Shown here: one piece after another, positions 2,235 to 32,610 of the stretch
Numbering within the stretch: position 1 is the stretch's first letter
Layout of the letters: every line of letters begins with the position of its first letter
DNA from: Candidatus Anstonellaceae archaeon
GTDB taxonomy: Archaea; Micrarchaeota; Micrarchaeia; Anstonellales; Anstonellaceae
Assembly (NCBI GenBank): GCA_046295675.1
Contig: JBKBMW010000001.1
Location: forward strand, 1-32,610
Length of the DNA stretch: 32,610 bases
Direction of reading: 5' to 3'
Made by a program: the position numbers and the translations under genes
Notes under the pieces: generated by a model
Database searches by the model: none
What the model saw: the letters and a program-made list of their open reading frames with translations, nothing else
Told to the model about the DNA's origin: nothing

Positions 2235-2753
2235 TCAAAAAGAAAATTTTGAAAGCTTTATAAATGATGGAATAGAATTTTTAATAAATCCGAATACAAA
2301 TTCCATTCTAAATTGCCTTGCTAAAGCCAACTTTGCTTCTAAATCCTCAAAAAGCATAGGGTTTTTTATATCTACTAAATTAAGAAGAATTTGCGCTCGT
2401 TCTTCCTCCCTTCCCACTCCAGGAGAGTATACAAACCAGTAGTTTGGGTCAAAAGAATTGAATCTTACCACTCTTCCTACTGAGCGAATTTCTTTATATA
2501 TTAAATACTGTTCTTCTGGATTTAAATTAAATTGCTTTTTATCATCATTTATCAAATCCAAAATTTTTTTCCAATTTTGTTTTTTCATTGAACTATTTAC
2601 AACTTCAATTAATCTTAATTCTGTCAAATAAGCGGCTTCTAATGGGTGAAGTATCAAGTTTTGCCCATCTATTTTTCCAAATGAGCCAGAAAGGAGGTTT
2701 TCTATCTCTTCTTTTTTAGTGCAAATTATTTTCTTATTTTTTATCTGAGCCAT
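2235..2753 (-). CDS. endA: tRNA-splicing endonuclease family protein (EndA-like; probably a non-catalytic/structural subunit)
   Basis: By-eye alignment to M. jannaschii EndA (recalled): SGSFGKIDGQNLILHPLEAAYLTELRLIEV vs [30 protein letters not shown]. Also YLIYKEIRSVGRVVR vs YLVYKDLRTRGYIVK, and WFVYSPG vs FRLYERG. Catalytic Tyr is retained (Y109), but the His and Lys positions read R119 and M150. Confidence 0.8.
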   Translation of the reverse strand: MAQIKNKKIICTKKEEIENLLSGSFGKIDGQNLILHPLEAAYLTELRLIEVVNSSMKKQNWKKILDLINDDKKQFNLNPEEQYLIYKEIRSVGRVVRFNSFDPNYWFVYSPGVGREEERAQILLNLVDIKNPMLFEDLEAKLALARQFRMEFVFGFIKNSIPSFIKLSKFSF

Positions 2754-4609: not shown

Positions 4610-5458
4610 TCAAAAGGCTATTTTTATAAATTTTTTTCCCTCTTTTTTGGCTGTTTGAAGTTCTTGTTCAATTTTTTCCATATTCTGTTTTATATGTTCT
4701 ATTGCTTTTTTGAAAAAAATAATTTGTTTTTCAATATCTTCAAGGTTTTGTTTTTGATTTTGTAGTCTTTTTTGTAGTTTTTGCTTTATTTTTTCTTTTT
4801 CTACATCCATCTCTTTTGGTTTTTTTTCTTCCTCTATTCGATCCAAAAATTCTATTGCCTCTGATAGGCTTGAAAATTTTTTTGTTATATTTAAACCAAT
4901 ATCTTTTGGCTCAATAGCCCAAACCTCATTATTATAAACCAAAAATTCTTTTATGTCCTTGATTTTGCCTTTATCTATCTCTTGAGAATTTTCATACTTC
5001 TTTCCAAAATATATTCTTTGCTCAAATTCCTTTTTTGGAGGATAAGAAAAAAAATCGCCTTTTTTTAGTTCTTCTTCTGCATAAAAAAAAGCAATTACTT
5101 TTTCCTCTTGGAGTAAAATCATATTCCCTTTTGAAAACTGTTTCAAAACAAGTTTATAATTTGGAAAAAATTCCAAAATATAATATCTATCAAAATCATA
5201 TTGATAAAAAGAGATAAGTTTTTTTCCTTGCAAATGTTTTCTTAAAAGCATAACAAAATTGCTTGCTTGTTTTAAAGCTGTGTTTTTAGTAGATGAAAAA
5301 TAAAAATTTTGTCCAAGGTTAATCACCAAGCCTTTTTTTCCAAAGGAAAAAAGAAATTTCTTTTCTCCGATCTGATAAATTTTTTTTAGCCTTTGATTTA
5401 AAATCTCCTCTCCTTCTTTCAAAATAAGGGAATATTCCCACATAGACAAAGTTTGCAT
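4610..5458 (-). CDS. NFACT-N domain protein (truncated Rqc2/RqcH/FbpA-like) with a C-terminal coiled coil
   Basis: LKKIYQIGEKKFLFSF...FVMLLRKHLQGKKLISFYQYDFDRYYILEF...FSKGNMILL matches the NFACT-N consensus (kiYq ... F.m.LRKhL.G ... Q...DRi..leF ... GNiiL). The K/E-rich C-terminal half is a coiled coil. There is no NFACT-R/DUF814 part. The start could be 5458, 5443 or the TTG at 5473. Confidence 0.7.
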   Translation of the reverse strand: MQTLSMWEYSLILKEGEEILNQRLKKIYQIGEKKFLFSFGKKGLVINLGQNFYFSSTKNTALKQASNFVMLLRKHLQGKKLISFYQYDFDRYYILEFFPNYKLVLKQFSKGNMILLQEEKVIAFFYAEEELKKGDFFSYPPKKEFEQRIYFGKKYENSQEIDKGKIKDIKEFLVYNNEVWAIEPKDIGLNITKKFSSLSEAIEFLDRIEEEKKPKEMDVEKEKIKQKLQKRLQNQKQNLEDIEKQIIFFKKAIEHIKQNMEKIEQELQTAKKEGKKFIKIAF

Positions 5459-12891: not shown

Positions 12892-13311
12892 TTATTGTTT
12901 TGGTCTATCTGAAAAATACACCACTCCATTTTCATACCATACAAAAGCTTTTCCTTTATACTCCCCATTATTTGTTAATTCAATATCACATAGAAAGGTC
13001 CTGCTAAGTGAGGAAGTACCTGTTTGGATTTTGAGTGTTTTTTTATCCTGCTGACTAATTTTTAGATTTATATTTGCTAATTTTAGAGTATAATAATTTC
13101 CATCGCCCAATATACAAGCTTGGTTTACAAACTCCTCAATCTGATCAGCCTGCATATTTAATATTGAACCATATGCTACCTTTCGCTGGGTTTTATCAAG
13201 CACACTAACTGTTGCAAAGGCAATCATAATCACACTTAAGGAAATTAAAAAAATAAGAAGGGATTCAATTGTTATTTGGCCAAGTTTTTGTTTTAAAATA
13301 TTTCTATTCAT
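12892..13311 (-). CDS. class III signal peptide (type IV prepilin-like) protein A
   Basis: N-terminus MNRNILKQKLG|QITIESLLIFLISLSVIMIAF has Glu at +5 after the predicted G|Q cleavage site, followed by a hydrophobic helix. It starts 12 nt downstream of protein B on the same strand. The mature domain is unrecognised. Confidence 0.65.
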   Translation of the reverse strand: MNRNILKQKLGQITIESLLIFLISLSVIMIAFATVSVLDKTQRKVAYGSILNMQADQIEEFVNQACILGDGNYYTLKLANINLKISQQDKKTLKIQTGTSSLSRTFLCDIELTNNGEYKGKAFVWYENGVVYFSDRPKQ

Positions 13312-13323
13312 ATTTCTCTCATT

Positions 13324-13575
13324 TTAAGCAGTACATGTACTTGTGGTAGTATCACATTTCCATTCACTATTGACTTTCTCGCAATCACTATCTTTTGTAC
13401 AAAATATATCAGAAGGGGAAACATCAGTCATGTTTGCTATTTTCTCTGTTCTTTCTGATGTTTTTTGGCTTAGAGTTTTAACATTTGAGCTAAGTTGTGA
13501 ATAGATTATAAAAACCAATCCAAGGATCAATACTAAAACAATAAGCATCTCAGCAGAGAGTTGTCCTTTTTTCAT
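13324..13575 (-). CDS. small class III signal peptide (type IV pilin-like) protein B, Cys-rich C-terminus
   Basis: MKKG|QLSAEMLIVLVLILGLVFIIY carries the QxSxE (DUF361-like) motif. A GGTGAAAG Shine-Dalgarno precedes it. The C-terminus is CTKDSDCEKVNSEWKCDTTTSTC (4 Cys). Confidence 0.75.
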   Translation of the reverse strand: MKKGQLSAEMLIVLVLILGLVFIIYSQLSSNVKTLSQKTSERTEKIANMTDVSPSDIFCTKDSDCEKVNSEWKCDTTTSTCTA

Positions 13576-13698
13576 TCTTTCACCAATGTTTAATCAGAAC
13601 TAATAATTTTAAATTTTTCTACTTCTTATTAACAATCTTTTTTTGGCTCTTTTTCTTTTTAGAATAAACTTTAAAAACTTCATTTTTTTACTATATTT

Positions 13699-14313
13699 AT
13701 GATTCTTAGATACAAAAAAGCATTTATTTTTTCCTTAGATGCTTTTATAGCTTCCATCATTATTTTTTTCACTTTACAATACTTAATTTTTTTAAGTTAT
13801 TCTCCTTATAGTTATTTTAATTCTCTTAGGCAAGCACAATATTTAGCATCAGACACGTTGAATTCTCTTTATTTGCTTGAATATGAAAATAGTTCAAACA
13901 ACTTCCTTTCAAAGGCAATCAGATTTGCCTATGGTTATGGCTCATTTCCAAATGAGTTAATATCTTTTTCCAATATTGTTATACCGCCAACTTATTCATA
14001 TGCTTATGATTTTTATGATTTTTCTTCTGGAACATGGATTCCAATTTACAATGCAACCGCTATCCCAGCAAGAAATATTTCTTTTTATAAAGTAATGGCT
14101 TCTTCTTATGTTTTACAAGTTTCTTATCTTGATCCACTAATAAAAGGTGATTCTCCTTATTGTAATATTGAATGCAAAGGTTATGATTTAGCTACAGGTA
14201 AGTATTCAAAACCACAAAATTGTACTCAAGTTCCTTGTGATATAAAACATGGTACAACATTTGACCCAGGAAATGTAACTATTGGAGTGATGAGGTTAAC
14301 CGTATGGGGATAA
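13699..14313 (+). CDS. class III signal peptide (type IV prepilin-like) protein C
   Basis: MILRYKKA|FIFSLDAFIASIIIFFTL. It has several N-x-S/T sequons and 4 Cys near the C-terminus. It is the first gene of the plus-strand unit. Confidence 0.6.
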   Translation: MILRYKKAFIFSLDAFIASIIIFFTLQYLIFLSYSPYSYFNSLRQAQYLASDTLNSLYLLEYENSSNNFLSKAIRFAYGYGSFPNELISFSNIVIPPTYSYAYDFYDFSSGTWIPIYNATAIPARNISFYKVMASSYVLQVSYLDPLIKGDSPYCNIECKGYDLATGKYSKPQNCTQVPCDIKHGTTFDPGNVTIGVMRLTVWG

Positions 14314-16163
14314 AAAAAGGTTTTTTTTTCATTGTTATTGCTTTGGTGGTACTAAGCCTTATGGCGTTATCTTTGTTTTTATGGTCCGAGCAATCCTCAC
14401 TTCAATATTTATCTGATAGCGAGAAATTTAGAGTTAACTCTTTACAACTTCCCTTTTCGTTTATATCTGAAAATAATGTAAATAAAATAGCAAATATTTC
14501 TGCAATTTATGCAGTTAATAAATTGGCTGATGCCCTTATTCAGCATCCAGAGAAAATAAAAGGAATTAAAGTACCTGCTAATTGCGTTTCTTCTCAAAGC
14601 GGTGGAGATGATTGTATAATGTATGTAAATAGTTCTATCTTTGAGCTTATGTTTTATGGAAACACTTCTGGGTACCTTTTGGACGAATTCTCCTCTCCCC
14701 AAAAATATTTTTATCAATTACCGCAGCAAAATCTAACCTATAATACAGATGAAAAAATTTATACTCTCTCAAACTATTTTGATAGAACTTCTGCATTAGC
14801 AAAAAGTTTTGGTTTTGATCTTTCTTGGGGAAAACCAGAAAGTTTTTCAATAAAACATGATGATTATAGGACTTTAAGAGTGATTTTTAATATTCCTGTA
14901 AAACTAAGTTCTAAGTATTTCAATATGGACAAAAAAATAAAAGTTAATACTTCCTTTGCAATCGATGGGCTTCCTGATCCCTACTTAGCTGTAAGATATA
15001 GACAAAGACTAGATTTTACTTATAATCCATCTGGTTCTTTAAATCCTCCTAATGGTTTTACTCCAATCAATTATGGCCCTAAGCCAGTTCCATATAAAAA
15101 TGTTTATTTTTCATCTTATCAAAATCCTTCCCAAGCAGCAGCTAAACTCATATCCTCTGGTTCCCAAGGACTTGGTTGGTTTTATGGGCCAGTGGTAACA
15201 AAAAGCCACAAGTTCTTTTCTGATACTGATCCAATATATAACAAATCAAAAATAAATCAATTTATTTTTGCAACTAACAATCCTGATGAAGCAAGAAGAG
15301 AATCACAATATTTTGGAGCGGTTATTCTATACGGAGTAACACCTTATTTTAGCTCTACCAATCAGGTTCAACAAGGACGAAGAATTTCTGAAGAACAAAA
15401 TTGTATCTGGTGCATAAGAATAGAAAACACTCTCTCTCCAGGTGGATCAAACACTATCTACTCTTTTTATAAATATCCGATAAAAAGAGATATTCCCTTT
15501 ATTATAACCAATTTACAGCTTGGAACACTTTTAAGTAGTGTTAAACCAAATTATCGTACTGGCTTAAAAGAGGTTTTAATAACCTCCAATTTTAATATTC
15601 AAGATATTTGCTCTGATTATAAGGATACTCCTCCAAAATGTTCTGGCAAGCAACTAACTTACAAAAATAACCAATATTCTAAAGCATCTTTTTATAATTT
15701 AGATGGCCCAAGAGATATGGCAATTTGCGGATTTTATCTTCCATCTGAATATGGCTTATCTTATTTGCAGAGATTTACTAATCTTGAGTTTTCTTCTTCT
15801 CCATCCATACCAATAAGCAAATACGGAATAGAATCTTTTGATGTAGGCTCTTGGGCTGGGGGATATCTATCTTTTCAATATGGTCTTTCCAAAGATGCAC
15901 AATCCTCTTCTCCTTTTGAAACTTCTTCTCGTATAGATTATCACTTTTTATTAAATGATCCAGTCAATAATCCTTATTGTAGGGGGATATACATTAAAGG
16001 AATGCCTGGTTGTAAAGATAGCAACATGTGTTCTTCTTTAGACCCATACTTTAATTCTACTGGAAGATTTTCATTAACAAATAAGTCATTTAATCCAACA
16101 TTTAGGTACAATCTTTTTAGTTTAACTATTCCAACAAACTATCCTCAAAGTGATTGTAGGTGA
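14304..16163 (+). CDS. large (619 aa) class III signal peptide-anchored surface protein D (candidate adhesin / minor pilin)
   Basis: MGIKKG|FFFIVIALVVLSLMALSLFLW. A GAGGT Shine-Dalgarno precedes it, and it overlaps the end of C by 10 nt. It has 11 Cys, many N-x-S/T sequons, and no domain I recognise. Confidence 0.6.
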   Translation: MGIKKGFFFIVIALVVLSLMALSLFLWSEQSSLQYLSDSEKFRVNSLQLPFSFISENNVNKIANISAIYAVNKLADALIQHPEKIKGIKVPANCVSSQSGGDDCIMYVNSSIFELMFYGNTSGYLLDEFSSPQKYFYQLPQQNLTYNTDEKIYTLSNYFDRTSALAKSFGFDLSWGKPESFSIKHDDYRTLRVIFNIPVKLSSKYFNMDKKIKVNTSFAIDGLPDPYLAVRYRQRLDFTYNPSGSLNPPNGFTPINYGPKPVPYKNVYFSSYQNPSQAAAKLISSGSQGLGWFYGPVVTKSHKFFSDTDPIYNKSKINQFIFATNNPDEARRESQYFGAVILYGVTPYFSSTNQVQQGRRISEEQNCIWCIRIENTLSPGGSNTIYSFYKYPIKRDIPFIITNLQLGTLLSSVKPNYRTGLKEVLITSNFNIQDICSDYKDTPPKCSGKQLTYKNNQYSKASFYNLDGPRDMAICGFYLPSEYGLSYLQRFTNLEFSSSPSIPISKYGIESFDVGSWAGGYLSFQYGLSKDAQSSSPFETSSRIDYHFLLNDPVNNPYCRGIYIKGMPGCKDSNMCSSLDPYFNSTGRFSLTNKSFNPTFRYNLFSLTIPTNYPQSDCR

Positions 16164-16170
16164 TTTACTT

Positions 16171-16722
16171 ATGAAAGCTCAAGTAGCCTCTGAATCTCTA
16201 ATACTTCTTGGATTTATTACATTTTTTATTATCCCGTTATTATTTTATTTTCTTTCTTTTTCATCTGAAAAACTTTCTTTTATAGGAGATTATCAAATTC
16301 TTTCTTTAATTAATCAAATATGTGACACTGCTGCAGAGGTTTGGTATCAAGGACCAGGAGCAAAGAAATCAATCATAGTTTTTTATCCGATGGGAATTAA
16401 AAACATCATATTAGGTGGAGACACAGTTTCACAATTATCGTTGTTTAATACTCAACAAAATGAATTAAATAAAAGAAAAATCATAATAGAGAGCGAGCTT
16501 TTTAATAAGAAGAAATATTTCGTGGATTATTGTTCATCTCCAATAAAAAACAGTAAACGCTTTATGTCTATTGCTCCAGATCTTTCATTAAACTTTAAAT
16601 CTTCAAATGATATTTATCTTCCTTCTGGAATGAGAAGATTAAATTTTGAATACATATCAGAAAAAATTAATGGGGAAGTTCACAATGGAGACTATGTTCT
16701 GATAACAAGGGGAGGAACATGA
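16171..16722 (+). CDS. class III signal peptide (type IV prepilin-like) protein E
   Basis: MKA|QVASESLILLGFITFFIIPLLFYF, with Glu at +5. The ATG at 16171 lies 7 nt after an AGGTGA, and I prefer it to the track's GTG at 16150. Confidence 0.65.
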   Translation: MKAQVASESLILLGFITFFIIPLLFYFLSFSSEKLSFIGDYQILSLINQICDTAAEVWYQGPGAKKSIIVFYPMGIKNIILGGDTVSQLSLFNTQQNELNKRKIIIESELFNKKKYFVDYCSSPIKNSKRFMSIAPDLSLNFKSSNDIYLPSGMRRLNFEYISEKINGEVHNGDYVLITRGGT

Positions 16723-17219
16723 AGGGAAAAAAAGCACAGATTTCAGTAGAAGTGATGGCCTATATTAGTTTTCTTATTTTAGTCTTTGTACTCTTTTCTT
16801 TTTATCTTTTGCTTAACTTTAATTCAGAGATAAAAAATAGACAATATCTTTTGCTAAGGGAAGAAGGGGAGCAGATAGCACAATATTTTCTTTTTGTTTT
16901 AAATTCTGGGCCAGGAACAACTTTTAAATTTTCTGTTAAACCATATCTTTCCTATCCTTTCGGCCAAAAATCAAATTTTTCTATTCTTATATCAAACAAA
17001 AATGGTTGGCTATATATTGTAACTAAATCTTCCACTGGCACAAATACTAACACTCCTTGGTTTTCTTTTCCAATTGGATTTAAAAATTTTGTTTGCAATC
17101 CAAATCAGCCTCCATCTTTAGTTCCATCCTGTAAGGTAAATGGGCAGACTATAGAAATAGATCCATCAAAGGGTTGGATTTTTTTAAATTATACTTCTAA
17201 TAAAATTGAGGTTGAATAA
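16719..17219 (+). CDS. class III signal peptide (type IV prepilin-like) protein F
   Basis: MKGKKA|QISVEVMAYISFLILVFVLF carries the QxSxE motif. A GGAGG Shine-Dalgarno precedes it, and its start forms an ATGA overlap with the stop of E. Confidence 0.7.
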   Translation: MKGKKAQISVEVMAYISFLILVFVLFSFYLLLNFNSEIKNRQYLLLREEGEQIAQYFLFVLNSGPGTTFKFSVKPYLSYPFGQKSNFSILISNKNGWLYIVTKSSTGTNTNTPWFSFPIGFKNFVCNPNQPPSLVPSCKVNGQTIEIDPSKGWIFLNYTSNKIEVE

Positions 17220-17858
17220 ATGAAAAAAGGGCAATATTTTTCAGCTGATATTGTTGTTGCAATAATAATCTTTATTTTTTCCTTATCCATCTTACTTAAC
17301 TACTGGCATGGTCTTAAAAGTCAAGGAGGGGAAGGTTTTCTTTATTCGGAAGCTTTAAGAATTTCAGATCTTCTTTTAAGCCCTGGAGATTACAATGTAT
17401 CTGGAAAGTCCATAATTTCCTCAGGGAGTATGAAATGGGTTAACTGGTATGATGACCCTGATAATGCAATTAGAGCTGGTTTAGGAGTAGAAGGAATGAA
17501 AAACAAAATCATCTACTCTCCCAAATCTGCACAATTAGGTTCAAATTATCCAAGTTTTGATAATCCTAAATTAAAAATTTTTTCCAGTTCTTCTGATCCA
17601 GACTACAAAAAACTAAAAGCACTTTTTGGCACTTATTTGGATTTTTATGTTGAATTTAATTTTTATTCACCTTCCTCTTTAATTACAACGGTTCCTCCTA
17701 CCTTCACTAAACAATTTGGACTAAATTTTGATCCAACAAAGCAGAACCAAATAGCAAAGGTAAGAAGGGCAGTTTACATCTATTATTCTTTTGGGCCAGT
17801 GAAAACTCCTCAATATATTGGATATATGGATATTTATGTTTGGCAAAATAAACAATAA
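17220..17858 (+). CDS. class III signal peptide (type IV prepilin-like) protein G
   Basis: MKKG|QYFSADIVVAIIIFIFSLSILL. Its ATG directly abuts the TAA of F, and a GAGGT Shine-Dalgarno precedes it. It has no Cys. Confidence 0.7.
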   Translation: MKKGQYFSADIVVAIIIFIFSLSILLNYWHGLKSQGGEGFLYSEALRISDLLLSPGDYNVSGKSIISSGSMKWVNWYDDPDNAIRAGLGVEGMKNKIIYSPKSAQLGSNYPSFDNPKLKIFSSSSDPDYKKLKALFGTYLDFYVEFNFYSPSSLITTVPPTFTKQFGLNFDPTKQNQIAKVRRAVYIYYSFGPVKTPQYIGYMDIYVWQNKQ

Positions 17859-18794
17859 TTAAACATATCTTTCATAATTTTCTGGAAGGAATTTTCCAAT
17901 CATAGAGTTAAGTTTTATTTCTAAAATTTTTTTTAAATTAATATCTTGGGCTAAATTTTTTATTCCTAAAAGTGCTGCCAAATCCTCTATTTTTTTAAAC
18001 ACAATCTTTTCTTTTTCACCTTCAATTATAGCCCTATCCTCTTGGAGAAGAAAATTTTTTATTTTTATTTTTTTCTTTTTAGAAGGTTGAAAAAGAAGTC
18101 TAGAATTTGCTTTAAGCCAAATTTCATTATTTTTTACATATCCATTTTCAATCCTAACATGTGCATCCTCTGTCAATATTCCTTTCAATCCTTCACTTTC
18201 CCATTGGACTACTCGATAATCTTTTTTATTTATATTAATATAAAATGTAGTCATCATCTTTGTTTCTCCGTTTTTTGTTTTATATGTTCTATCCTCTATG
18301 TTTTTTATTTTTCCCTCAAAATTTCCAATCATCCCATTTTTTATATTAGTTATTGTCGGTGCTTTTTTAAGCAGCCTAATTTTTCCTTTGTTGAGCATTC
18401 TAAATTCATCATTAAAATTTTTCATTGGACCAATTAGAATTTTATCTCCTATCATTAGTTTTTGCCATACTTCTATTGCAGCCAAATCAAAAAATACAAC
18501 AGTTGCCTCTTCGCTCTCATCTTTAACTAAAATTCTCAGAGTTGTAAAGTCCTGATTATTTTTTAGAGTTTTTTGTAAAAGATAAACTTTTTTAACCTCT
18601 ACTTCAAGTTCAAATGGAAAAAGGCTTTTTTTTGCTTCCTTTATGGTTTTTGGTTTAAAATAATCTGAAGATTCTTCTAAAGAAATTAAATACCTTGCTT
18701 GTTCATCATTGATCAAATAATGATATTCTTTAAGTTTTTCTTCAACCTTTTTCTCAATTTCTTCTTCTTTTTCATCTATAGTACTTATTTTCAT
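17859..18794 (-). CDS. RPA/SSB-like protein with two OB folds
   Basis: Two segments fit the RPA-type OB pattern (beta-strands, an acidic D/E-x-x-G/A centre, W, then Gd.i.i): FELEVEVKKVYLL...LRILVKDESEEATVVFFDLAAIEVWQKLMIGDKILI, and GNFEGKIKNIEDRTYKTKNGETKMMTTFYININKKDYRVVQWESEGL...AHVRIENGYVKNNEIWL. There is no zinc finger. Confidence 0.55.
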   Translation of the reverse strand: MKISTIDEKEEEIEKKVEEKLKEYHYLINDEQARYLISLEESSDYFKPKTIKEAKKSLFPFELEVEVKKVYLLQKTLKNNQDFTTLRILVKDESEEATVVFFDLAAIEVWQKLMIGDKILIGPMKNFNDEFRMLNKGKIRLLKKAPTITNIKNGMIGNFEGKIKNIEDRTYKTKNGETKMMTTFYININKKDYRVVQWESEGLKGILTEDAHVRIENGYVKNNEIWLKANSRLLFQPSKKKKIKIKNFLLQEDRAIIEGEKEKIVFKKIEDLAALLGIKNLAQDINLKKILEIKLNSMIGKFLPENYERYV

Positions 18795-29437: not shown

Positions 29438-30346
29438 ATGGAAAATGGTTTTTCCTTACAGCAAAAAAAATGTTCAAAACCATTTTTTACCAAAGAATTT
29501 TTACAAAAGATTAAAAACCAACCATTCCATCTTTCTACTTTATATATAGATTCACTTTCTACTGTTTTATCCCAATTTGAAATTAGATTTCTAAAAGCAT
29601 TTGCTTATTTTCTAAATAAAAAATATAATGAAGTAATAAATGAACTAAAAAACATTGTAAACAACCACTCTCCAATTTATATTTACCCTATTTATATCTA
29701 TAGCTTGTTAAAAGAAAACAAAGTAGCAAAGGCTTTGGATTTATGTCATAAAGCATTAAGCAAATCCAAATCTTCTTCACTTTTTTGGCTTACTGGAAGA
29801 GCATATCTTCAAAAAAAGAATATATCAAAGGCAATACATTTTTTGCTTAAAGCAAAGTCTTCCTGCCCACCTAAAGCCTCTATAAGAAAAGTTTTGATTT
29901 TAGCTGATCTTGGAAAAGCTTATACTAAGAAAAAAAATTATTCTAAAGCTTTGAAATATTTTTCCCAGGCTATTCATTTATATCCAAACTCTTTTATTCT
30001 TTTAAAGAGGCTAGGTATGTATTATTTCTCCCTAGCTTTCAACTCCCAAGAGCCTAAAGAAAAAGAAAAAAATTTTAAATTGGCAATAGAATATTTCTCT
30101 AAAGCCTTATTGCTAAGTTCGCAAAAAACTTCCACCTCCTTTTTATTTTTTAAATTAGGCCTTTGTAATTTTTATTTACAAAAATTTGAACAAGCTAAGC
30201 TATACTTTGAAAAAAGTTTAAATATGCAAGAAGAAAGCAATAAAATTTTACAATATACTAAAGCATATCTTAAATTTAGTGAATTTTTAAATCAGAAAAA
30301 CAAAGAAAATCTAAAGGGCCAAGACTGGGATTTGAACCCAGACTAA
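29438..30346 (+). CDS. TPR repeat protein
   Basis: There are at least 5 TPR-like 34-mers, for example LGKAYTKKKNYSKALKYFSQAIHLYPN and KLGLCNFYLQKFEQAKLYFEKSLNM. The last 30 nt read through the antisense of the tRNA-His gene, so the true C-terminus is uncertain. Confidence 0.7.
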   Translation: MENGFSLQQKKCSKPFFTKEFLQKIKNQPFHLSTLYIDSLSTVLSQFEIRFLKAFAYFLNKKYNEVINELKNIVNNHSPIYIYPIYIYSLLKENKVAKALDLCHKALSKSKSSSLFWLTGRAYLQKKNISKAIHFLLKAKSSCPPKASIRKVLILADLGKAYTKKKNYSKALKYFSQAIHLYPNSFILLKRLGMYYFSLAFNSQEPKEKEKNFKLAIEYFSKALLLSSQKTSTSFLFFKLGLCNFYLQKFEQAKLYFEKSLNMQEESNKILQYTKAYLKFSEFLNQKNKENLKGQDWDLNPD

Positions 30347-30425
30347 GGGAGCTTTGCAGCAGGCTGCTTATATTTAAGCAGAGGGCTTCCACAATCCCTT
30401 GTGCTGCCGTTACACCATCTTGGCC
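30317..30425 (-). tRNA. tRNA-His (anticodon GTG) with a 37-nt intron at the canonical 37/38 position (intron 30352-30388)
   Basis: The reverse strand reads G(-1) GCCAAGA TG GTGT AACGGCA GCAC A AGGGA TTGTGG [AAGCCCTCTGCTTAAATATAAGCAGCCTGCTGCAAAG] C TCCCT TAGT CTGGG TTCAAAT CCCAG TCTTGGC C. It has an 8-bp acceptor stem with G-1:C73 (the His identity element), GG in the D loop, a TTCAAAT T loop, and anticodon GTG (plus-strand cac, 30390-30392). No CCA is encoded. It is the only GC-rich island in this part of the window. Confidence 0.85.
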
Positions 30426-30599: not shown

Positions 30600-31754
30600 A
30601 TGAAATTTAAAGAATCAAGGTTTGCTGAAATAAAAAACAAAACACTAAATAATGCTAAAAAAACATTTATGGCTTTTTTTCTTGCAGGTAGTCTTTCTTT
30701 GGGGTTAAATAGCTGTACTACTGAGTGTGATGTTCTTAGATCCAGGATTAACTTAAAGACCCCTTTTATGGAAGAGTACCCATCAGTTTACGAAAAATAT
30801 TATAAAGAGCTAAAACCACAAGCTGATAGTTTGCTTAATTCTATTGAGATGAAAAAAACAAATTCTAAAGGACAAAGTCTAGATATAGAAAAAGAAAAAG
30901 AACAATTAAATCAGATAGTAACTCAATATAAAGATTTAAGTGAAATTTGTAAGTGTGGATCTAGAGAAGCCTGGGGAAAATTTAGAGATGATAATATTTC
31001 CGCTTATAATAGAAGATCCCTTTTTCTTTATCACTACATAGATGACAATCCCTCTCCAGATACATGGCATCTCTCTTCTGATTTGAAGGATCTTGCTAAC
31101 AGTTTTATGGACCTAAGTCGTAAAATAAAGACTAGTTCGTTAGCAATACCAATTATAATTAATTATTTTACCTCTACTAACCCTGATTCTGTTTTAGGAA
31201 AATTTATTTATAAGTACCTATTTTATTGTCAAGAAAAAGGAGAAGAAGAATTCAGCTCTAATTTAGAAAAATTAATTGTATTTCTAGCTGATTCTTCTAA
31301 TTCTAATTACCTTAAGGAGCTCGTTCTGGATAAGCTTCAAACCCAATCTAAATTTAGAGAAAATTTAAAAGAAGTATGTAAATACATTTCTCCTAAAGGT
31401 AAGAGTGTTCATGGGATTTATGATCTTTTTGATAGCCCGGATATTGAAATAAGAAGGAAATTTAAGGGTATTTCCCTAACAGGAGATCCCTCCATCGATG
31501 AAGAAGTTTTTGATGAACTTTCTCTCTTTGATTCAAAGAATCCTCTAAAATTAAGACTCCAGCTTAGCTTGTACAAAAATATACGCAAGAAGAGGTTTTT
31601 GTCTAATGACTCTTCTTTCATTAAAAAATGGAATGGTATCCTTAAAGCATTTGGCCTTACTGAAGATTCTCTGGAGGCTACGGAAAAACTTTTCCGTAAA
31701 GTTGGCCTTCCTAAAGATTCTCTGAACGAAAAAAACCTTACCCCTAAAAAATAA
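30600..31754 (+). CDS. hypothetical secreted or lipoprotein-like protein
   Basis: A GGTGGG Shine-Dalgarno precedes it. The N-terminus ...KKTFMAFFLAGSLSLGLNSC resembles a signal peptide with a lipobox-like L-N-S-C. The rest is helical and K/E-rich with no recognisable domain. Confidence 0.5.
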   Translation: MKFKESRFAEIKNKTLNNAKKTFMAFFLAGSLSLGLNSCTTECDVLRSRINLKTPFMEEYPSVYEKYYKELKPQADSLLNSIEMKKTNSKGQSLDIEKEKEQLNQIVTQYKDLSEICKCGSREAWGKFRDDNISAYNRRSLFLYHYIDDNPSPDTWHLSSDLKDLANSFMDLSRKIKTSSLAIPIIINYFTSTNPDSVLGKFIYKYLFYCQEKGEEEFSSNLEKLIVFLADSSNSNYLKELVLDKLQTQSKFRENLKEVCKYISPKGKSVHGIYDLFDSPDIEIRRKFKGISLTGDPSIDEEVFDELSLFDSKNPLKLRLQLSLYKNIRKKRFLSNDSSFIKKWNGILKAFGLTEDSLEATEKLFRKVGLPKDSLNEKNLTPKK

Positions 31755-31959
31755 ATTTTCCAAGTCAGGCAACCTTTTAAGAAAAATTAGTAAACAACTA
31801 CTTTAGATAAGAGGTAATCCAAGGGCTAATTTTTCTGTAGAGCTTTCTTTTAATCTAGCACTGTTTTTCCAAATTTTAAAATTAAACCTTAAACTTTTAT
31901 AGTTTTTATTTTCTTACTTTTCTCTCAACATTTAAAAATTTTCTTGAGATAAGTATTTT

Positions 31960-32610
31960 ATGATCTATAAAAAGTTGGGGGCTAAATTTCTTCTTTTGTT
32001 TTTTGTATCTTTTACTATCATCTTTGCTCAATCACAAAACCCAGCTTGTCAAAATCCTCCCCTGTCTTCATTTTTAAAAATGTATTATGAACATGATATA
32101 AAATCAGATCAAACAAAGCTTTATCTAACCCTATATGGAAAAACTCAGCCTGACCAAAATAATTTAGGTAATGCTTTTGTTGAACCTTATCAACCTCTCA
32201 AGTATGGTTATATCCTAATAAGCCAAAAAGAAGAATTATCTCAACAGCAATCTCAACAAGAAACATCTTGCTATGTTGTAACTAACGAAAGTGGGCAAGC
32301 AACTGTTTTTCTTAATTCTCAGCCTGGTTTTTGTTATGTTATTTCTGCTAAATTCATTCCTGATTATTCAAAGATTTCTTCCAACCCTTCATGTCAATCC
32401 TTTATTTCTAATAACCCTTCTATTCATAAAGAATATCTACCCTCATTAAATCAACTAAAGTATTGTGTGCCTGGAGAAAAAAAACAAACAACTACTGTGT
32501 GCTGGTTTAGTACTATAATAGCAGGGCTGATTTTCGCAGCTACTTTTATTATGGGAAGAAATCCACTACTTTTTTTTGATTTAGGAGTCTCCCGATCTCT
32601 CCCTTCAAAA
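31960..32610 (+). CDS. hypothetical secreted / C-terminally membrane-anchored Cys-containing protein (partial, runs off the window)
   Basis: Absent from the ORF track because it has no stop. My manual translation from the ATG at 31960 gives MIYKKLGAKFLLLFFVSFTIIFAQSQNPACQNPP..., a signal peptide. Later comes ...TTTVCWFSTIIAGLIFAATFIMG, a TM segment. The frame stays open for 217 codons to the window end. Confidence 0.5.
   Translation, partial: MIYKKLGAKFLLLFFVSFTIIFAQSQNPACQNPPLSSFLKMYYEHDIKSDQTKLYLTLYGKTQPDQNNLGNAFVEPYQPLKYGYILISQKEELSQQQSQQETSCYVVTNESGQATVFLNSQPGFCYVISAKFIPDYSKISSNPSCQSFISNNPSIHKEYLPSLNQLKYCVPGEKKQTTTVCWFSTIIAGLIFAATFIMGRNPLLFFDLGVSRSLPSK

Follow-up and report, generated by a model that had tools for sequence, protein, structure and literature searches.

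A census of archaeal type IV pili (T4P) describes modules of an ATPase and a TadC platform that act on pilin sets encoded elsewhere (Makarova 2016; PMC4858521), as well as small (~70 amino acids, aa) stand-alone major pilins and at least five minor pilins per system (PMC4858521). Among the Micrarchaeota, Candidatus Mancarchaeum acidiphilum Mia14 has two T4P systems, one of which consists of an ATPase and a TadC protein followed by seven class III proteins, and a single A24-family peptidase; the same study reports key T4P components to be common to many Micrarchaeota (PMC5498576). Type IV pili, scored as FlaIJK, have also been reported for Anstonellaceae metagenome-assembled genomes (MAGs) in the paper that defined the Anstonellales (PMC8561730). 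Here we analyze a stretch of 32,610 nucleotides from a Candidatus Anstonellaceae archaeon (assembly GCA_046295675.1, contig JBKBMW010000001.1; hereinafter the window), in which seven adjacent open reading frames (ORFs), A to G, at positions 12892–17858 each code for a protein that begins with a short basic leader ending at a [K/R]-[G/A] junction, followed by a single hydrophobic helix. An initial annotation of this DNA had presented them as an 'orphan' locus that could encode an 'undescribed filament'; all seven ORFs are present at the coordinates given there, with the class III N-termini that it quoted. We consider that the locus probably represents the pilin module of a T4P system that several DPANN lineages have in common, and that in Micrarchaeota this module is encoded apart from the assembly module. 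The locus is an orphan by position only, and a known kind of machine rather than a new system.

The evidence that carries this reading comes from homologues in other DPANN archaea, which we compared using hidden Markov models (HMMs) of the Micrarchaeota families and hhalign, both at full length and with the first 40 residues (the helix) removed. The G family includes a divergent sub-group (K-G/QAWGFDLI, with the slash marking the junction) from Pacearchaeota and Nanoarchaeota, and the loci of its members (L035–L037) are canonical T4P loci coding for a T2SSE ATPase, two T2SSF/TadC proteins and a KaiC-like ATPase. Their genes comprise, in order, two small divergent genes for class III proteins, one of them of the DUF7266 family, an ~180-aa membrane protein, the T2SSE ATPase, the two T2SSF proteins, the KaiC-like ATPase, the G homologue, an 855–1127-aa VWA protein, an ~300-aa protein and a 146–196-aa pilin. 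The G homologue, which thus lies directly downstream of the T2SSE–T2SSF–T2SSF–KaiC-like ATPase block, matches G at 67–77 bits (hhalign 99.6% at full length, 98.9% with the helix removed). In the same loci D corresponds to the ~300-aa gene (35–56 bits; 98.5% and 96.0%), E to an ~136-aa divergent gene (38–57 bits; 98.1% and 93.4%) and F to the ~129-aa DUF7266 gene (39–55 bits; 98.6% and 96.4%). C is similar to the N-terminal ~70 residues of the VWA protein (8–21 bits; 94.9% at full length), with no significant match for its mature part. On a further contig (P0246), a five-gene block with a G homologue is convergent with an operon of the form T2SSF–T2SSF–(268-aa gene)–T2SSE. The labels 'orphan' and 'undescribed' therefore find no support: D to G have homologues of their mature domains inside canonical T4P loci, pilin sets away from ATPase and TadC genes were already described in archaea (PMC4858521), and there are reports of T4P machinery from Micrarchaeota, Anstonellaceae among them (PMC5498576, PMC8561730). 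One of the Anstonellaceae MAGs with reported pili (PMC8561730), LFW-29, itself carries A to G (locus L009).

The Pacearchaeota and Nanoarchaeota loci share with the window, beyond the D to G homologues and the C-like N-terminus, the two N-terminal types (Q...E and F/Q.FS.D) and a pair of small pilin genes divergent from the main operon. However, whereas their pilin genes flank the ATPase–TadC–TadC–KaiC genes (F-E, machinery, G-VWA-D-pilin), those of the Micrarchaeota are detached from such genes and lie among housekeeping genes, in the window as A-B and C-D-E-F-G. Moreover, D is about twice as long in Micrarchaeota (~540–690 aa versus ~300 aa), the C-type protein has 204 aa in the window as against 855–1127 aa in the VWA version, and A and B are a feature of the window without counterpart there. 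Conversely, the terminal 146–196-aa pilin of these loci, which is likely their major pilin, has no orthologue in the window locus; its N-terminus (KG/QAAMEFLMTYGWAILAAIIAIGVLAYFGVFSP) is near-identical in all three (L035:13995–14585, L036:14821–15267 and L037:14845–15285). On the strength of the two T2SSF genes and a faint PilB3_C match of the T2SSE ATPase only, these loci resemble the euryarchaeal 'clade 2' T4P (Makarova et al. 2016), with their PilB3-like ATPase, two TadC proteins and own pilin set. The differences raise a possibility that we put forward tentatively, namely that the Micrarchaeota have a remodelled pilin module as a vertically inherited core feature amid their housekeeping genes, with D doubled, C without the VWA part and the B-A pair added, which might build a host-contact filament with a tip, D, of a fold without a solved relative. 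If true, B and D would be direct molecular handles on how episymbionts recognize and hold their hosts.

Two further described systems offer partial parallels. The Mia14 locus MIA14_0252-0260 (Golyshina et al. 2017) likewise has seven consecutive class III proteins in a Micrarchaeote, a likeness by annotation and count; but its pilin set stands beside the machinery, with the A24 peptidase elsewhere, while that of the window is detached. Mia14 is not among the D or G matches listed. The Epd or 'clade 1' T4P of Methanococcus maripaludis has its very small major pilin, of ~70 aa, encoded outside the main locus, and several essential minor pilins with Gln at +1 (DUF361-type) in a system spread over several loci (PMC4858521). 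Gln at +1 also recurs in the window; however, matches to PF04021/DUF361 stay below threshold there, no DUF2341 adhesin or EppA was seen, and the loci of the DPANN relatives carry a PilB3-like ATPase rather than a demonstrated clade 1 ATPase.

The class III junction of the seven proteins is itself conserved far beyond chance, since it is kept across non-redundant orthologues from ~27 other Micrarchaeota loci. Gln at +1 and Glu at +5 are found in 10/10 orthologues of A, 22/23 of E and 21/22 of F; B shows [KR]G/QLSAEMLI in 11/11 and G [KR][GA]/QYFS.DA, with Q+1 and D+6, in 22/22. C retains [GA]/F.FS.DAF in ~24 orthologues, and D has the form [KR][KR]G/FFF with Phe at +1 in 23 of 24. The acidic residues that the initial annotation had pointed out are thus kept in the orthologues, Glu at +5 being (near-)invariant in A, B, E and F and replaced by Asp at +6 in C and G, while D has none. 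Not all archaeal pilins have an acidic residue at +5. In hhalign comparisons the families fall into two groups, {A, B, E, F} and {C, G, D}, by their N-terminal region only: that of A is related to those of B, E and F (88–96%), and that of C to those of G (89%) and D (62%). The mature domains are mutually unrelated, and the combination of a shared N-terminal helix with unrelated mature domains is the pattern typical of pilin sets. Judged by these sequence features, all seven are most likely class III (type IV prepilin-like) signal-peptide proteins. In several high-GC loci (L027:4184–4720 and 4680–5258, L023:12100–12732, L031:1089–1775), the signal-peptide junction is repeated once or twice in degenerate form (e.g., 'RGQAIIECRCGATAGRLRGQATIECRCGATAGRLRGQATIEML') in the reading frame upstream of the start codons of E and F, which suggests that the 5' ends of E and F may have undergone tandem duplication.

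The proteins also look extracellular, as had been proposed: the only hydrophobic segment of each is N-terminal and would serve as the transmembrane (TM) segment, and conserved cysteine pairs are present in A to D (two conserved Cys in A, four invariant in B, four in C and ~7 in D). The claim that the set as a whole is rich in paired cysteines and N-glycosylation sequons survives for those four proteins and in respect of the cysteines; conserved Cys pairs are absent from E, F and G. The sequon density of the seven proteins (1.06 per 100 aa) exceeds that of the cytoplasmic proteins of the window (0.32 in the larger comparison; a smaller protein set gave 0.09), but composition-preserving shuffles already predict 1.03. 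We therefore ascribe the density to an Asn/Ser/Thr-rich composition and reject it as independent evidence of glycosylation.

We recovered ~30 Micrarchaeota loci, 27 of them from a scan of species-representative genomes in which every hit was a Micrarchaeote, and assigned their families by iterative HMM searches; three long contigs with the same arrangement were reached via D homologues. The order C-D-E-F-G is kept in all of those Micrarchaeota loci that extend far enough to reveal it; in the Pacearchaeota and Nanoarchaeota loci, homologues of D to G recur in a different order. The flanks of the operon are always housekeeping genes and partly syntenic (DUF2070, NMD3, the exosome block), indicating that it is vertically inherited and no mobile island. 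In about 14 of the loci L015–L034, a ~470-aa AAA+ protein is encoded directly downstream of G on the same strand (e.g., L015:4255–5679, L032:10529–11938). It is of the Mg_chelatase/MoxR-like type, with a Walker A motif GPPGTGKS and an AAA domain split by an insertion, and belongs to a sub-clade other than that with B-A. The archaeal census links MoxR-type ATPases and vWA proteins to T4P (PMC4858521). We nevertheless set this AAA+ protein aside as dedicated pilus machinery because DUF2070 and NMD3 come next, as they do near the window locus; it is possibly a regulator, or its position may be mere conserved synteny.

With respect to the individual families, F and G can be connected to Pfam domains. 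Seven of 23 F-family sequences (20 Micrarchaeota orthologues and three F-like genes of Nanoarchaeota) match DUF7266 (PF23928), the best with an E-value of 2.3e-8, and precomputed Pfam annotation assigns DUF7266 to the F-like genes of L036 and L037; window F has no DUF7266 match in the Pfam scan. The G family comprises 1,679 representative clusters at E ≤ 1e-3 in an exhaustive search. Relatives of G align with DUF7287 (PF23958) over model positions 3–157 of 157 at 26.2–28.9 bits, around the gathering score of 27, and more distant members reach 15–22 bits. Since window G has no match even at an E-value of 10 and the link runs via intermediates, the kinship is at the superfamily level. Thus the statement that no mature domain is recognizable is correct for the proteins of the window when judged at Pfam thresholds, but not at the level of the families, of which F is related to DUF7266 and G to DUF7287. 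We found no papers in the literature on DUF7287, DUF7266 and the neighbouring DUF numbers. The AlphaFold2 (AF2) model of G (mean confidence score, pLDDT, 84) has helices at residues 9–33 and 38–53 followed by an alpha/beta domain with a four-stranded sheet. One G paralogue (101 bits), in the Micrarchaeota MAG GCA_026396385.1 (L038:6265–11804), is followed by a 1,638-aa protein in which a class III-type leader (KKA/QVALEFLTTYGW) is fused to Big_1, Invasin_D3 and beta-helix domains; this would make it a pilin-anchored giant adhesin.

D had 19 homologues in the search, the named ones all from Micrarchaeota, and no Pfam match; orthologues of C, D and E from other clades gave none either. The low-confidence AF2 model of D (pLDDT 60.7) shows an N-terminal helix (residues 4–53) and beta-rich domains, with the C-terminal third unresolved. 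Both models are compatible with a pilin architecture, which they do not prove. In the public NCBI record, D begins at an internal Met, so that 14304–14360 is left out and the protein, of 600 rather than 619 aa, has lost MGIKKG/FFF and part of the helix; the longer start is supported by the orthologues.

Several results weigh against the locus being a T4P pilin module. At gathering thresholds, no pilin model of Pfam or NCBIfam matches any of the window proteins. The search with DUF361 and the archaellin and pilin N-terminal models that had been suggested as a check gave no match at threshold: against PF04021 (Class_IIIsignal/DUF361; cutoff 23.7), window A scores 14.3 bits (E 0.041), window B 11.4 and the best orthologue, one of B, 18.9, while no archaellin or Arl-family match of Pfam or NCBIfam is present in the locus or the window. 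Foldseek comparison with PDB structures retrieved no fold match for D and no solved pilin for G, whose best hit had an E-value of 0.04 and whose uS3 matches were spurious. The profiles of G and B likewise retrieved from the PDB sequences either nothing or designed coiled coils, a composition artefact, leaving neither with a genuine match. Assembly machinery is missing from the surroundings as well, just as the initial annotation had stated: no T2SSE ATPase, T2SSF/TadC protein or A24 peptidase is encoded in the window (Pfam on all ORFs of at least 90 aa, together with the window ends and TM profiles), and none of the recovered Micrarchaeota loci has an ATPase, TadC or peptidase gene within 10 kb of the operon. 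The latter result comes from gene tables and a motif-level scan of ~0.5 Mb of flanks for the T2SSE Walker A and the A24 GxGD motifs, whose matches were ABC transporters, a P-type ATPase and a conserved AAA+ protein only. Finally, neither HMMs nor hhalign identified a specific counterpart of A or B in the T4P loci of Nanoarchaeota, the similarity being N-terminal only; given also that they adjoin C to G in just one sub-clade, their place in the same filament is read from adjacency alone, and the roles proposed for B and D below are putative.

The missing thresholds, fold matches and neighbouring machinery would also be expected if the seven were not pilins at all but ordinary surface proteins, N-terminally anchored or Sec-secreted, with class III-like N-termini. 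We regard this as highly improbable. The junction (Q or F at +1, with E+5 or D+6) is kept residue for residue across deep divergence while the mature domains diverge, so the loss of the junction in homologues, which would have spoken for plain anchors, is not what we observe; the leaders, at 3–12 aa, differ from Sec signals in being very short; and four of the seven families have homologues that lie within canonical ATPase/TadC loci, a linkage that makes plain anchored surface proteins unlikely.

A more serious alternative concerns the divergent pair. The mature N-terminus is better conserved in B than in the other six families (70% mean pairwise identity over residues 1–25, as against 38–62%), and B is the smallest protein, with a C-terminal knot of four invariant cysteines. 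For these reasons (size, helix conservation and an invariant disulfide knot) B is, on its sequence, the candidate major pilin, and A, co-transcribed with it, a putative accessory subunit or minor pilin. However, the pair adjoins C to G in only one Micrarchaeota sub-clade (the window, L001, L005, L006, L009–L014 and L018) and was not found beside C to G in L015–L034. Thus, two systems might lie side by side, with C to G representing the conserved minor-pilin module of the DPANN T4P and B-A an independent, lineage-specific pilin pair that merely neighbours it and belongs to a different filament or supplies stand-alone major pilins to another ATPase. The restricted distribution speaks for this, as do the purely N-terminal similarity of the pair to anything in the Nanoarchaeota T4P loci, the different candidate major pilin that these loci hold (KG/QAAMEFLMTYGWAIL) and the frequency of stand-alone major pilin genes in archaea (PMC4858521). 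Nevertheless, the divergent arrangement of B-A and C-G around a short shared intergenic region is kept across distant genomes with differing flanks, which suggests co-regulation; A, B, E and F share one N-terminal type; and the C to G set would otherwise have no obvious small major pilin. On balance we doubt that the two units are independent, and we favour a single module of A to G.

By analogy with established T4P biology, the N-terminal helix would insert each of the seven precursors of this module into the membrane, where an A24-family prepilin peptidase, encoded elsewhere, would cut after [K/R]-[G/A]. A PilB/VirB11-type ATPase acting on a TadC-type platform, both also encoded elsewhere, would then extract the mature subunits, and their N-terminal helices would be stacked into the filament core. 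For this genome, we infer machinery acting in trans from the literature on related MAGs. C, D, E, F and G would be minor pilins that prime or cap the filament, B the bulk (major) pilin and A an accessory subunit. D, the largest protein of the set and one rich in cysteines and sequons, is the likeliest tip or adhesive subunit. In a host-associated archaeon the most plausible use of such a filament is attachment to surfaces or partner cells, and the role in cell–cell attachment suggested at the outset is a reasonable inference.

In its organization the set recalls bacterial pilin sets such as GspH-K, FimU/PilVWX and ComGC-GG, in which a small, abundant subunit and four or five minor ones with unrelated heads share an N-terminal helix, the genes are translationally coupled and one large member is associated with the tip. 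This likeness is an analogy of working and not one of family membership: sequence or fold similarity beyond the helix is lacking, the leaders and peptidases of archaea are different, and a secretin or outer-membrane part is absent. The ComGC-GG and GspG-K sets consist of one small pilin and several minor pilins, a composition that the window locus resembles. The same machine might do another job: as a pseudopilus of short length, or as a Com-like pilus of the competence type, it might take up DNA or other substrates or secrete proteins. B indeed has weak, sub-threshold matches to the competence pilins ComGC and ComGE, and the Mia14 authors speculated on DNA exchange through T4P (PMC5498576). 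Yet the Com matches are far below threshold and confined to the hydrophobic helix, DNA-binding or channel components are absent from the locus, and related loci encode large proteins with class III leaders and VWA, Big_1/Invasin/beta-helix or laminin-G domains, which point to adhesion. An uptake or secretion function thus appears improbable to us, and attachment remains the preferred function of the proposed filament.

Accepting the assignment as a T4P pilin module, the seven genes, called 'hypothetical protein' in public records across the Micrarchaeota, can be annotated as a type IV pilin set. DUF7266 and DUF7287, to which Pfam assigns no function, gain a function from context as T4P pilins of DPANN archaea. 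B, the probable filament subunit, and D, the probable tip, become targets for the study of attachment in ultra-small, host-associated archaea. What is particular to this lineage, namely that the pilin genes are separate from the machinery, that D is doubled and C short and that a B-A pair has been added, matters to DPANN specialists and for annotation.

Features of the pilin locus and other features of the window discussed in the text
Feature	Position	Strand	Description
A	12892–13311	-	139 aa; ..KLG/QITIE..; 2 conserved Cys; putative minor pilin
B	13324–13575	-	83 aa, mature 79 aa; MKKG/QLSAEMLI; candidate major pilin
Intergenic region	13576–13698		123 bp, AT-rich; separates the divergent B-A and C-G units
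C	13699–14313	+	204 aa; ..KKA/FIFSLDAF..; 4 conserved Cys; putative minor pilin
D	14304–16163	+	619 aa; MGIKKG/FFFIV..; ~7 conserved Cys; candidate tip/adhesin-type minor pilin
E	16171–16722	+	183 aa from ATG (MKAQ); MKA/QVASESL..; putative minor pilin
F	16719–17219	+	166 aa; MKGKKA/QISVEVM..; putative minor pilin, related to DUF7266
G	17220–17858	+	212 aa; MKKG/QYFSADI..; putative minor pilin, related to DUF7287
H	17859–18794	-	311 aa; acidic, cytoplasmic; no Pfam match
tRNA-splicing endonuclease gene	2235–2753		
tRNA	30317–30424	-	Rfam match; probably contains an intron
384-aa ORF	30600–31754		lipoprotein-like N-terminus (..LGLNSC)
Partial ORF	31946–32610	+	at least 221 aa, runs off the right end; probably a surface protein

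The close packing of the genes within the locus is as first described, with a 10-nt overlap of C and D, an ATGA shared by E and F and zero spacing between F and G (TAAATG); A and B are separated by 12 nt. Going by the gene arrangement only, the region between B and C is the presumed site of divergent promoters. The rest of the window consists of archaeal housekeeping genes: upstream of the locus are two FtsZ genes and those for Spt5, EndA, CysRS, a helicase, a P-type ATPase, RadA and Sec61-beta, and downstream those for a DHH protein, prefoldin, exosome subunits, SBDS, the proteasome alpha subunit, DUF2070 and NMD3. The setting amid housekeeping genes, which the initial annotation had also noted, thus agrees between the window and the flanks of the other Micrarchaeota loci.

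Gene H is always directly downstream of G in the sub-clade with B-A and adjoins the gene for a DHH/DHHA1 (RecJ/GAN-like) protein. Its orthologues give a faint signal of the tRNA_anti-codon OB domain, and it probably binds nucleic acid as a housekeeping protein, with no relation to the pilins. Toward the right end of the window, the Rfam match to a tRNA spans 108 nt as against a model of 71 positions, which is probably due to an intron; according to ARAGORN, the window has no tRNA. The partial ORF at the right end combines a signal-like hydrophobic N-terminal stretch with a C-terminal hydrophobic segment, and the 384-aa ORF with the lipoprotein-like N-terminus lies just before it.

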